From the NCBI GenBank assembly GCA_022705325.1, contig JAKJER010000009.1, forward strand, positions 38,532 through 70,531: a stretch of 32,000 nt of DNA, read 5' to 3'. Below the pieces are notes generated by a model. It had not been told where the DNA came from and did not search any database. It saw only the letters and a list, made by a program, of their open reading frames with translations. Positions 14,146 to 17,376 of the stretch are shown here, one piece after another (position 1 is the stretch's first letter; every line of letters starts with the position of its first letter). This stretch comes from Planctomycetota bacterium. Its GTDB lineage: Bacteria > Planctomycetota > Phycisphaerae > SM23-33. A program made the translations under genes and the position numbers.

Positions 14146-17100
14146 ATGGCCGGCAAGCGGTGGACTCAGAAGTGGCACCAGGATCAGATCACCAGTTTCA
14201 AGGCCCAGCGGACCGCGTACGAGATCTATGCCCTGCTCCTGAACAAGGTGCTGGAGAAGGTCTGCCACAGGCACACGCAGTACGGACGGGCTGAGGCCCG
14301 GGCAAAGTCGGTGACGAGCTTCGCGGAGAAGGCCATCCGCAAGTTCGACAAGTACGACGATCCGATCCACATGTTCACCGACCTGTGCGGGGGCAGAACG
14401 GTTACTTTCACCCAGACCGAGGCGGACCGCGTCTGCACGTTTGTCCGGGCCAACTTCATCGTCGACGAAGACAACAGCGAAGACGTCCGCAAGCGCCTCA
14501 AGCCGGACCAGTTCGGCTACCGGGCGATCCACTACATCGTGCAAATGCCCTGGATGGCGATGACGGGCAGGCCGCCGCTTGCGGACGAGCTTGCGCGGAT
14601 CGGCCAGGACGAGAACATCCGCGACAGCGCAGCCCTTGGCAAGGCCCTGAACGTGATCGGTGATGGGCTTTCCGACATCCTGATAGGCCAGGCCGTCAAG
14701 GAGACGTTCAAGGACATCAAGGAACTGCAGGCCGAGCTGGTCAAGGAGGCTGATGGCCGGCGGGCGGTCATGACACCCGAGGGCGCGACCATGCTCTGCA
14801 CCGCGATGGAGGAGGTCGCACGGGAGCTTCCCGACGGTCTGGCAAGAAAGTGGAAGATAGAAAGCCCCATTGATGTCGCGAGGATCATCGCCAACCGCAA
14901 GGCCGAGATCCAGGTGCACACCGCTCTTCAGAACGCGTGGTCGGCCATCGGTCACGATCGACTCTACAAGAATGACTACAGGGTCCCGCCCGCCCTGACG
15001 AGGCAGATGCATCGCGTGGCGGCGCTGCTGGAAGAGGGCGACGAGGAGTTGGCGCGGGCGATCGCCCAGTTCGATGAGTTCGCGCTGGACTACGGGGCCT
15101 ACATGGCCCGGTCCGATCGCCACCGGGAGTTTCTCAAGTGGCGCTCCGTCCTCCGCCGTCAGGTCGATACTCCTGCGGAGCAGTCTGCGCTGGCCTTGAA
15201 AGCGGCGGGATTTGCCGTGTCAAACGAGGACTGGGATGGGGCTATCGACGTGCTCCAGCTTATGAAGGACAAGAGCAGCGCGGCTCTTCGCGAACTGGGC
15301 CGGGCGAAGCTCCGCAAGGGAGACCTGAGCGGTCTGGAGGACCTCACTACGGCGGCCGACGGAACCAACGGGGATTGCTTTGCCCACTGTCATTTGGGCG
15401 AGTTCCACTGTGCCAGAGCCTGCGGCAAAGGGATTCCGCCGAACCCCGGGGGGGACTCGGACTGCAGTAAGGCCGTCAGCCATTTTGCGGAGGCCTTCAA
15501 GACAGCCCCGGAAGACCCGACTGTGCTTCGGCTGTACCTGGAATGCGGGATCTGCATGAACGGACAGGCGAAAGCCCTTCCGCTGCTGAGGCCCGCCCTG
15601 GAGGCTGCCACCCGGAAATCCCGCCAGCGGGCCGACATCCGCCTGCACATGCCGCGAGCCTTGTACGACATCGGAGAATTCTGTCTCCTGCTAGACCAGC
15701 CCTATGAAAGCCTCGACGCCTACACGCGGGCGGTCTTTCTCAGCGAGAGCCTCTCCCCGATCGAAGAGGCCCTGGCTTCGCTGGCCCGGATTCAACGGGG
15801 GATCAGCCCTTCGGCATCGCCCTTGAACGAACACCTGGGCTGGGTGAGGAAGTTCCTTCTGCTGGCGAAGCTGGCTAAGTCGCAACAACTGGCGACGCAG
15901 GCCCCGCTCGAACACTCTCGACGCCTGGAGATCCTCCAGGACGCCATGGCCTACGAACAGGTGAGAGAGAAGGAACTCGATGAAAGGAAGGCCGAACGGG
16001 AAGGCATGGAGCGGCAGACGTCGCCCAGGACGGTGGAACAGAAGAGACTTCGCCTGCAGGAATTGAAGGAAGCCCGCAGGGCCGAGCAAGACGCACTGGA
16101 CCTGCTGAACGAGGCCAGACAGGATACCCGGGAAGCACAAGAGCTGGCCGACAAGGCCAAGGCGGAAATCACGCGCTCCGGGGAGAAGGCCGACGAGGCG
16201 CTGAAGGCGTTCCGGGCGCTCTCGCTGGCCAGCCGCTGGCAGGGGAAGCCCGACCCGCTGAGGGGGAGGAAGGTCGTCATTGTTGTCGGCACGACCGACC
16301 CAAGGTTCGAGCAGCAAATGAAGGCGTACAAGTCGCTGATCACCGAGGCGTTCGACGGCTTTTGTGGGACGATCACGTCGGCTGGAACGACCTCCGGGGT
16401 GGGCTCGATCGTCGGTGACGTGCAAGCGAAGCTCGGTTCAGACGTCCAGAGCGTCTGCTACCTGCCCGGCACCACGCCGGACGAACTGCCCGGCGGGGCC
16501 GTCCTGGACACGCGATACACCCACCCGGTCTTTACGGGGGGCAAGCGGTTCAGCCCCCTGGAGCCCCTGCAATACTGGATTGACATTGTGGCCGCCGGCG
16601 TGAGACCCGAAGACGTGAAGGTCCTGGGGATCGACGGGGGCCGGATCGCCGCATGCGAATACCATTTCGCGTTGGCCCTGGGCGCCTGCGTGGCGGTGCT
16701 GGAGAAGGGCGGGCGCGAAGCGGCCAGGCTGCTCCCCGACGAGGACTGGGGCATGGCCGAGCGGTTGCTCGTGCTGCCTCGCGAGGCCGCGATGATCCAC
16801 GAGTACCTCTGGAGCGCGGACCAGCCCTGCCCGGCGGCGATCGAGCCCAAGCTTGAGGACCTGGCCAGGAAAATACACGACGCCTATTGCCAGGAGCAAC
16901 TGGACAAGATCAGGCAGAGGACGGGGAGCTACGTGCTGTGGGACGATCTGCGGCAAGTGTTCAAGGACTCGAACCTGGCGCAGGCGAGGCACTACTTTGA
17001 GACGCTGCGCTGCGGGAATCTCCAGGTTCGCGAGGTGCAGGGCCGGTCCGTCATGCTGCCTGATTGGGCCCTGACCGACGAGGAGTTGAAGCGAGAGGGG

Positions 17101-17376
17101 CGCACAGTCTCGGCTGAGCAGCGCGAGATCAACCGCCGCCTGTTGGACACCATGGCGCGGGCCGAGCACGCTCGATTCGTGGTGGAGAGATATCTGGCCG
17201 GTTGGAAATGGGGCGAAGAGAAGGACGAAAAGGCGAAGACCAATCCCACGCTCATCTCGTGGCGCGATCTGAGCGAATCGGTTCGGGAACTGGACCGAAC
17301 TGCTGTTCGCAACATCCCCAAGTTCCTGCGCGAACTCAACCTGGAAGTGGTTCCAGAAGGGGACGGCAAGTCCTGA
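14146..17376 (+). CDS. Multidomain protein (1,076 aa): RelA/SpoT-type nucleotide pyrophosphokinase (small-alarmone-synthetase-like) + helical TPR-like region + coiled coil + SLOG (TRPM/LSDAT-like) + RyR-domain tail
   Basis: A strong SD AAGGAG at 14133-14138 lies 7 nt before the ATG at 14146. Synthetase motifs occur in order: RAKSVTSFAEKAIRK (14299-14343), DLCGGR (14380-14397), GYRAIHYIV (14515-14541), EIQVHT (14905-14922), HDRLYK. A charged coiled coil spans ~15895-16215. The SLOG-like Rossmann domain (~16264-16810) contains VVIVVGTTD..., GTITSAGTTSGVGSIVGD and VAVLEKGGREAARLL. The RyR tail is at 16852-17352. Confidence 0.88.
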   Translation: MAGKRWTQKWHQDQITSFKAQRTAYEIYALLLNKVLEKVCHRHTQYGRAEARAKSVTSFAEKAIRKFDKYDDPIHMFTDLCGGRTVTFTQTEADRVCTFVRANFIVDEDNSEDVRKRLKPDQFGYRAIHYIVQMPWMAMTGRPPLADELARIGQDENIRDSAALGKALNVIGDGLSDILIGQAVKETFKDIKELQAELVKEADGRRAVMTPEGATMLCTAMEEVARELPDGLARKWKIESPIDVARIIANRKAEIQVHTALQNAWSAIGHDRLYKNDYRVPPALTRQMHRVAALLEEGDEELARAIAQFDEFALDYGAYMARSDRHREFLKWRSVLRRQVDTPAEQSALALKAAGFAVSNEDWDGAIDVLQLMKDKSSAALRELGRAKLRKGDLSGLEDLTTAADGTNGDCFAHCHLGEFHCARACGKGIPPNPGGDSDCSKAVSHFAEAFKTAPEDPTVLRLYLECGICMNGQAKALPLLRPALEAATRKSRQRADIRLHMPRALYDIGEFCLLLDQPYESLDAYTRAVFLSESLSPIEEALASLARIQRGISPSASPLNEHLGWVRKFLLLAKLAKSQQLATQAPLEHSRRLEILQDAMAYEQVREKELDERKAEREGMERQTSPRTVEQKRLRLQELKEARRAEQDALDLLNEARQDTREAQELADKAKAEITRSGEKADEALKAFRALSLASRWQGKPDPLRGRKVVIVVGTTDPRFEQQMKAYKSLITEAFDGFCGTITSAGTTSGVGSIVGDVQAKLGSDVQSVCYLPGTTPDELPGGAVLDTRYTHPVFTGGKRFSPLEPLQYWIDIVAAGVRPEDVKVLGIDGGRIAACEYHFALALGACVAVLEKGGREAARLLPDEDWGMAERLLVLPREAAMIHEYLWSADQPCPAAIEPKLEDLARKIHDAYCQEQLDKIRQRTGSYVLWDDLRQVFKDSNLAQARHYFETLRCGNLQVREVQGRSVMLPDWALTDEELKREGRTVSAEQREINRRLLDTMARAEHARFVVERYLAGWKWGEEKDEKAKTNPTLISWRDLSESVRELDRTAVRNIPKFLRELNLEVVPEGDGKS
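16852..17352 (+). other. Bipartite RyR-domain tail of the synthetase-SLOG protein
   Basis: LARKIHDAYCQEQL...VLWDDLRQVFKDSNLAQARHY ... MARAEHARFVVERYLAGWKWGEEKDEKAKTNPTLISWRDLSESVRELDRTAVRNIPKFL. The second half fits the RyR repeat consensus (EH-x2-W/F ... GW-x-x-G ... hP-x-L-x-x-(Y/W)-x-x-L ... DR). Confidence 0.75.

Follow-up and report, generated by a model that had tools for sequence, protein, structure and literature searches.

A RelA/SpoT-type synthetase with TRPM-type SLOG and RyR domains at the centre of a widespread candidate nucleotide-signalling module

We studied a planctomycete gene whose product joins a RelA/SpoT-type synthetase (RSH) domain to a SLOG domain and a ryanodine-receptor-type (RyR) domain, located at 14146-17376 (+) in a 32,000-nucleotide stretch of contig JAKJER010000009.1; this whole stretch is called the window here. 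Comparison with related loci placed the gene at the heart of a recurrent gene set, widespread but uncharacterised, that looks like a nucleotide-signalling module and also includes a MutT-like NUDIX hydrolase and, at a part of the loci, further RyR-tailed proteins. We tentatively read the protein as a ligand-gated RelA/SpoT-type pyrophosphokinase within that conserved module, serving most likely in conflict or anti-phage immunity, and we hold this favoured reading with a little less than even confidence. An earlier note, made from the window sequence alone, had described a writer and a reader of a nucleotide signal fused in one polypeptide. Both of its domain calls, synthetase and SLOG, stood; the description was incomplete in that the RyR, a second nucleotide-binding module, was overlooked, and the writer-and-reader idea became one of two readings that the data allow. 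The system is bigger than that note reported. Three public assemblies, independent of one another but from one organism, call the same open reading frame (ORF) as a gene, and its locus was stably found in about 10 contigs from several samples. Positions of all features are collected in Table 1.

The N-terminal enzyme is, by its motifs, a catalytically intact RelA/SpoT synthetase. The Pfam family RelA_SpoT (PF04607) matched residues 52-133 at 35.7 bits (cutoff 27), and the five synthetase motifs were found in order: R52xK54xxxS58xxxK62, D79xxG82xR84, Y125xxxH129, E254xQ256xxT259 and H270xR272xY274K275. All five were invariant in an alignment of 17 family members, so the full ordered set announced by the earlier note is present. 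The closest solved relatives were the small alarmone synthetases (SAS) RelP and RelQ, to which the domain aligned in two pieces around an insert of ~100 amino acids (aa); within the second half, residues 239-304 aligned to YjbM/RelQ. With the SAS, the toxic SAS (toxSAS) and CapRel (RelQ, RelP, FaRel2, CapRel-SJ46) the protein shares the synthetase fold and all five motifs, and with CapRel also the layout of a catalytic N-domain followed by regulatory C-terminal modules in one polypeptide. It differs from this group in its size (1,076 aa against ~200-370 aa, three to five times any SAS) and in the 100-aa catalytic insert; unlike toxSAS and CapRel it carries regulatory TPR, SLOG and RyR modules, not a pseudo-zinc-finger antitoxin domain, and its partner is a NUDIX hydrolase, not a small alarmone hydrolase (SAH) or antitoxin. 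The architecture is unlike the toxSAS and CapRel types, as the earlier note had maintained. The solved CapRel structures (7ztb, 9erv) gave no match to the RSH domain even at E ≤ 1, and matched a short, 365-aa RSH relative weakly (E = 0.001). Long RSH enzymes (Rel, RelA, SpoT) are similar in being multi-domain synthetases with a hydrolytic counter-activity, and six relatives of our protein have a NUDIX-synthetase order comparable to the HD-SYNTH order of those enzymes. Unlike them, our family lacks the HD hydrolase as well as the domains TGS, ZFD and ACT, which sense the ribosome, and its candidate eraser is a NUDIX that is usually encoded by a separate gene.

A helical repeat region and a highly charged predicted coiled coil connect the synthetase to the SLOG domain; the coiled coil, put at about 105 aa in the earlier note, comes to 68 aa for the segment quoted there. 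From the sequence alone, the Pfam family LSDAT_prok (PF18171) reached 15.8 bits on the SLOG region, below its cutoff of 25.4; among 68 homologues, 15 have this family recorded. A profile of this region, built from an alignment of 37 family members, found TRPM2 as its best match among PDB sequences, at the Gly-rich GGT..G loop (E = 0.009), followed by many further TRPM2 and TRPM8 chains. The AlphaFold2 model of residues 696-900 (predicted local distance difference test, pLDDT, 92.5; predicted template modelling score, pTM, 0.89) had as top Foldseek matches the MHR1/2 regions of TRPM4, TRPM2 and TRPM8 (E from 1e-7 to 1e-5, probability 1.0), and structures of TRPM2 and TRPM4 MHR1/2 with ADP-ribose (ADPR) or ATP bound were among them. 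A LOG-like molybdenum cofactor (Moco) carrier protein also matched the model, with a template modelling (TM) score of 0.75-0.80 normalised to the target. The earlier note had recognised a SLOG of TRPM/LSDAT flavour from two strings, which we located at residues 744-757 and 852-860, and had proposed a fold check of residues ~700-890; the Foldseek outcome was a SLOG and not another fold, and both the model and the family profile bore out the TRPM flavour. Since E838 is invariant in the family, a catalytic role of the SLOG domain beside binding is possible.

The C-terminal module that the earlier note overlooked was matched by the Pfam family RyR (PF02026) at residues 998-1068, with 40.4 bits (cutoff 27.4). 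By these domain matches, the C-terminal half of the protein contains two folds of kinds that bind adenine nucleotides, namely a SLOG of the TRPM type and an RyR of the R12 type. Bacterial RyR domains have so far been known from phage proteins. RyDEP cleaves 2'/3'cADPR, with residues H75, W78, H100 and D117 (2026 preprint, PMC13232231), and RyR Tad sponges gcADPR and cyclic ADPR (cADPR), with residues H129/W132, H154 and K170/D171 (2026 preprint); the RyR Tad preprint also reports that the homologous pocket of human RyR3 binds adenine nucleotides. The phage RyR proteins dimerise via helices alpha1 and alpha4. RyDEP and RyR Tad share with our protein the same Pfam domain and a conserved H..W / D pocket core. 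Both are small proteins with which phages overcome Thoeris, acting as sponges or glycosidases, whereas the modules described here are host-encoded and form the C-terminal parts of the synthetase, of a channel-like protein and of an ATPase. Across the synthetase family the successive pocket positions were H; W (F or Y in the long subfamily); mostly S, N, R or T; and D. The third of these, N in our protein, corresponds to the His with which the phage proteins bind phosphate.

The synthetase-SLOG-RyR family is both large and dispersed. When 1.84 billion cluster representatives were searched exhaustively (E ≤ 1e-30), at least 614 clusters at 50% identity were obtained, from many phyla and one archaeon; the best 150 of the 614 were 684-1,124 aa long, all had E ≤ 1e-96, and nearly all aligned over the SLOG-RyR region. 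A word-indexed search gave 67 relatives with the common architecture, and a genome scan, in which each GTDB species was represented once, gave 72 loci, whose phyla include Planctomycetota, WOR-3, Sumerlaeota, Desulfobacterota, Nitrospirota, Verrucomicrobiota, Cloacimonadota, Bacteroidota, KSB1, Actinomycetota and one Thermoplasmata archaeon. The phyletic pattern was patchy across unrelated phyla, gene order was shuffled, and domains were fused in some members and split in others. Family biochemistry is unexplored because nearly all members come from uncultured lineages. Matches of ~350 aa that consisted of an RSH domain only (L046-L078) were rejected as family members, being ordinary SAS-like proteins, and served as control loci only. 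Proteins of ~668 aa from Promethearchaeota (Asgard) and related lineages (P0065-P0067; L044) combined RelA_SpoT, TPR-S (PF20308) and the SLOG region and had no RyR.

Six-frame ORFs of all loci, taken from the genome scan and from contigs fetched for individual homologues, were searched with pieces of the window proteins, and gene-set counts were made over 44 non-redundant loci. The MutT-like NUDIX hydrolase was the commonest partner of the synthetase: it was fused N-terminally in 6 loci and lay within 200 bp (adjacent or overlapping) in 21, together 27 of 44. The NUDIX protein of the window belongs to this same fused or adjacent family, being 25-49% identical to its members, which form one coherent MutT-like family. 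Within 5 kb of the synthetase, a TrkA-type neighbour was present in 13 loci, an AAA-type neighbour in 6, and a further RyR protein in 15. Two smaller forms of the partners also recurred. A paralogue of ~430 aa with two transmembrane segments (2TM) and an RCK domain, and without RyR, was found in the operons, at times beside an RyR-tailed copy; and stand-alone RyR ORFs (about 80-200 aa), several with the full H, W, H, D set and of a format like that of RyDEP and RyR Tad, adjoined the synthetase gene.

In the window, the two RyR-tailed partners are a channel-like TrkA-RyR protein and an AAA+ ATPase. The RyR of the channel-like protein gave 69.1 bits and matched the repeats of RyR1-3 and a B. thetaiotaomicron protein, with E down to 1e-25. 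The N-terminus of this protein (17884-18230, +) looks like a 2TM pore in its sequence: between TM1 and TM2 it has an 'LYxTLQLFTLESGSL' segment, with a pore-helix-like LYxTLQLF part and a 'TLESGS' loop where a K+ filter would be expected, and the pattern is kept in 15 homologues. The RyR of the AAA protein matched at 31.5 bits against the Pfam cutoff of 27.4. The N-domain of this AAA protein (21097-22476, -) was modelled with pLDDT 82.7 as a PfkB/ribokinase-like fold, in which G[DN]AYG[FY] stands as a degenerate form of the GAGD anion-hole motif; the sequence profile of this domain had no PDB match, and the PfkB-like identity came from the fold search only. The domain may bind, and not phosphorylate, a ribose-containing ligand. 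The full pocket set H, W, H, K-D is kept in the RyR modules of both proteins. Two Fusarium proteins, P0160 (920 aa) and P0161 (1,158 aa), matched the AAA-RyR family over ~1/3 of the query (E = 4e-51 and 4e-39), which suggests that the ATPase part has fungal relatives.

The presence of one small helical domain type at the C-termini of three adjacent gene products recalls the coupling principle of effector-associated domains (EADs; Kaur et al. 2020), and the RyR modules might accordingly be homotypic adaptors that join the three proteins in one complex and not ligand sensors, as the dimerisation of the phage RyR proteins would also allow. We regard this as very improbable. The median identity of RyR modules across classes was 28.8% within a locus and 30.3% between loci; modules of the same locus are thus no more alike than those of different loci, and the co-evolution signature of EADs is absent. 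Moreover, the RyR modules conserve H, W/F and D of the nucleotide pocket, and the two-repeat module in each protein can form a pseudo-dimer intramolecularly.

All-against-all clustering of neighbour ORFs, with Pfam annotation, revealed one more recurrent family, whose proteins join DUF4062 to NACHT/nSTAND1 NTPases that carry arrays of WD40 or TPR repeats. According to 2026 preprints, DUF4062 ('NIR') is a TIR-like NADase that produces ADPR and an effector of Avs-like STAND immune proteins. A hidden Markov model of the DUF4062 N-domains found DUF4062-STAND genes within 10 kb in 14 of the 44 full-length loci and in none of 33 controls, which were loci with short RSH genes unrelated to the family (Fisher p = 1.7e-4) and came from other taxa than the family loci. 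The gene was directly adjacent to, and co-directional with, a gene of the system in five loci (L006, L016, L021, L025 and L038), and classic TIR domains were present in a few further related loci. An AAA-RyR gene without an RSH neighbour (L080, 1-18706) stood among TIR-STAND, two DUF4062-STAND-WD40, TIR_2-AAA_16 and metallophosphatase genes, in what looks like a dense immune island, and another AAA-RyR homologue adjoins Mrr-type restriction genes. Because RyR-tailed partners occur without the synthetase beside TIR or NIR NADase-STAND genes, the readers may sense an NAD-derived ligand and not the product of the synthetase.

Under the favoured reading, the SLOG domain, the RyR domain or both would bind an ADP-ribose-type ligand (ADPR or a cyclic ADPR isomer) produced when TIR or NIR NADases fire, and the helical/TPR region may contribute a protein input. 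Ligand binding would turn on the RSH domain, which would move pyrophosphate from ATP onto a nucleotide, giving a (p)ppGpp or (p)ppApp type of product, or onto the 3' end of tRNA, and this product would arrest growth. The NUDIX hydrolase would hydrolyse the product or the ligand, setting a threshold or resetting the system, while the channel-like and AAA RyR proteins would answer the same ligand in parallel, by membrane ion flux and ATPase-driven remodelling. One preprint reports that the toxicity of a TIR-STING NADase raises (p)ppGpp and partly depends on it, which provides a precedent for NAD cleavage coupled to alarmones. A further-reaching proposal, which we consider doubtful, is that host RyR and LSDAT-SLOG domains are natural receptors of NAD-derived immune signals, from which the phage RyR sponges were copied, and that the toolkit of SLOG, NUDIX, RyR module and channel is the prokaryotic origin of the ligand-sensing parts of eukaryotic TRPM2 and ryanodine receptors. 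In this two-tier cascade, an ADPR-type signal from TIR or NIR enzymes would drive the RelA/SpoT enzyme to emit a second, alarmone-type wave, and an RyR-gated RCK channel would open in parallel.

Several observations weigh against the immune reading. In the window, the gene set is flanked not by a defence island but by a gene for a giant RHS-type protein and by housekeeping genes; no TIR or DUF4062 match was found in the window; and about two thirds of the related loci have no TIR or DUF4062 gene within 10 kb. PADLOC yielded no significant match. The synthetase gene stood without companions in 12 of the 44 loci, and the enrichment of DUF4062-STAND genes has to be read with the different taxa of the controls in mind. 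Proximity to NIR/TIR-STAND proteins may be mere clustering in defence islands, since such proteins are self-sufficient NAD-depleting effectors. Finally, the RyR modules of the synthetase family mostly have another residue where the phage proteins have their phosphate-binding His, and their ligand may therefore not be gcADPR.

The same replacement, which makes the synthetase-type pocket unlike the gcADPR-binding residue set, agrees with a self-contained circuit that extends the idea of the earlier note: the RSH would write a pyrophosphorylated nucleotide messenger, the NUDIX would erase it in the role that the HD hydrolase holds in long RSH enzymes, and the RyR modules would read it, both in cis, which would give feedback, and in trans, where the channel-like and AAA proteins carry them, with SLOG and TPR as upstream input. 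The frequent fusion or adjacency of the NUDIX, in an arrangement that mirrors the hydrolase-synthetase order of long RSHs, would fit such a circuit, as would the type of the NUDIX itself, which is MutT-like (NTP-pyrophosphohydrolase type) and not clearly an ADPR pyrophosphatase. In 15 of the 44 loci the synthetase shares its operon with RyR-tailed partners, and most loci, the window included, have no nearby TIR or NIR generator. On the other hand, the RyR ligands shown to date are all ADPR-derived or adenine nucleotides, the 12 loci with the synthetase only have no separate reader-effector, and AAA-RyR homologues stand beside TIR/NIR-STAND genes at loci without an RSH gene, where the RyR ligand therefore is not an RSH product of the same locus. 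On balance we judge the self-contained circuit rather unlikely, but it is the main rival of the favoured reading.

The housekeeping genes that flank the set in the window (FlpD, MTHFR, glutamate synthase) and the stability of the locus across contigs and samples could instead speak for a housekeeping regulator of the stress or stringent type, that is, a lineage-specific, multi-input alarmone synthetase that adjusts physiology to nucleotide or NAD status and has no role against phages, acting for example on K+ flux via the RCK protein. RCK/TrkA domains are classic regulators of K+ transport, and the absence of a PADLOC match would be explained as well. This account is at odds with the patchy phyla, shuffled gene order and domain fusion and fission of the family, with its enrichment beside NIR/TIR-STAND immune proteins and restriction genes, and with the fact that phages carry RyR-domain sponges and glycosidases against Thoeris signals. 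We consider it improbable, and both the housekeeping and the adaptor roles less likely than the favoured immune reading and the self-contained circuit.

Among known defence systems, a close parallel was the Type I Thoeris protein ThsA (SIR2-SLOG), which likewise joins an output enzyme to a C-terminal SLOG sensor for a nucleotide-derived signal, and TIR-like NADase genes are often near the related loci. Our protein differs from ThsA in that its output is a RelA/SpoT pyrophosphokinase and not a SIR2 NADase, its SLOG is of the TRPM/LSDAT type, it has in addition a TPR region and RyR as well as a partner NUDIX, and a TIR gene is missing from the window and from most related loci. Thoeris types I-XI of a 2025 survey do not include the synthetase-SLOG-RyR family. 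By its domain matches, and for the SLOG part by its fold, the protein is a bona fide RSH-synthetase, SLOG/LSDAT and RyR-domain protein that belongs to neither the Thoeris ThsA nor the CapRel type. Outside bacteria, TRPM2 (SLOG-channel-NUDT9H) and the ryanodine receptors assemble a similar inventory, namely an LSDAT-type SLOG, a NUDIX, an R12-type RyR and a channel, for sensing ADPR, cADPR and ATP; here the parts are spread over four bacterial genes around a central alarmone-type synthetase, and the channel-like protein is of the 2TM-RCK type, not a TRP or RyR pore. We found no description of the RSH-SLOG-RyR architecture or of the gene set in the searchable literature, an earlier mention in the 2015 Nucleic Acids Research paper that defined SLOG/LSDAT being possible. 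The architecture is not described in the eLife 2020 paper on conflict systems, the 2022 survey of NAD-ADPr in viruses, the 2025 Thoeris survey or two preprints on DUF4062/NIR.

If the immune reading is right, an alarmone-type pyrophosphokinase would join the ligand-gated effectors of bacterial nucleotide signalling, and RyR domains, so far known in bacteria only from phage counter-defence proteins, would acquire their first host-side role. The module would also offer a testable bacterial assembly of the parts (TRPM-type SLOG, NUDIX, RyR Repeat12 and ion channel) by which Ca2+ channels of animals respond to ADPR, cADPR and ATP.

Table 1 Positions of the synthetase-SLOG-RyR gene, its domains, the neighbouring genes and recurrent small partners (window coordinates unless a locus is named)
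Feature	Position	Strand	Remarks
Synthetase-SLOG-RyR gene	14146..17376	+	ATG start, 1,076 aa; RSH - helical/TPR repeats - charged coiled coil - SLOG (LSDAT type) - RyR (R12-like)
RelA/SpoT-type synthetase (pyrophosphokinase) domain	14146..15075	+	Residues ~1-310; five synthetase motifs invariant in the family
Insert of ~100 aa	14554..14859	+	Residues 137-238, between the YxxxH and EIQxxT strands; long subfamily (P0001-P0010) only
Helical repeat region	15103..15945	+	Residues ~320-600; Pfam TPR families match here in several homologues
Predicted coiled coil, highly charged	15967..16170	+	Residues 608-675, 51% D/E/K/R; length varies or segment absent among relatives
SLOG domain, TRPM/LSDAT type	16270..16830	+	Residues ~709-895; invariant residues: Gly-rich loop G741/G747/G751, G831-G832 and E838
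Two-repeat RyR (Repeat12-like) module	16843..17349	+	Residues ~900-1068, last ~170; pocket positions H1008, F1011, N1033, D1050
Cys-rich small ORF (CCENP...CRSCGCYWYYW)	17548..17874	+	108 aa, between synthetase and channel-like genes; called in three assemblies
Channel-like protein	17884..19647	+	587 aa; TM1 - pore-helix/filter-like segment - TM2 - RCK (TrkA_N) - C-terminal RyR
PfkB/ribokinase-like - AAA+ ATPase - C-terminal RyR protein	19660..22476	-	938 aa from M21; open frame reaches 22536
MutT-like NUDIX hydrolase	22579..23034	-	NUDIX box complete; closely precedes the AAA-RyR gene
2TM-RCK paralogue without RyR	L008 7693-9039; L014 7923-9233; L021 13107-14408; L024 13905-15206; L029 7932-9218; L031 2872-3642		
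Stand-alone RyR ORFs	L002 13526-13825; L025 8662-9168; L030 1060-1296; L008 12672-13262		

The Cys-rich ORF between the synthetase and the channel-like gene was not counted as a member of the system; it had no homologue in the 44 related loci, and its membership is therefore doubtful. NCBIfam gave no family-level name for any protein of the set, and scans for promoters, terminators and tRNAs added nothing. Many long ORFs lie opposite to the genes described (e.g., 10302-14006, -), and they are most likely artefacts of high GC content. Downstream of the set, the region 23815-31000 contains housekeeping genes for an FlpD-like protein, MTHFR and an archaeal-type split glutamate synthase (Fer4 plus Glu_synthase, and GATase plus GXGXG). 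Upstream, the giant ORF at 66-13955 (+) covers 4,629 aa in the window; it matched RHS repeats 24 times and has Big_9 and bacterial cadherin-like domains at its C-terminus, and it was extended to 9,555-14,134 aa by the gene callers in the three assemblies.

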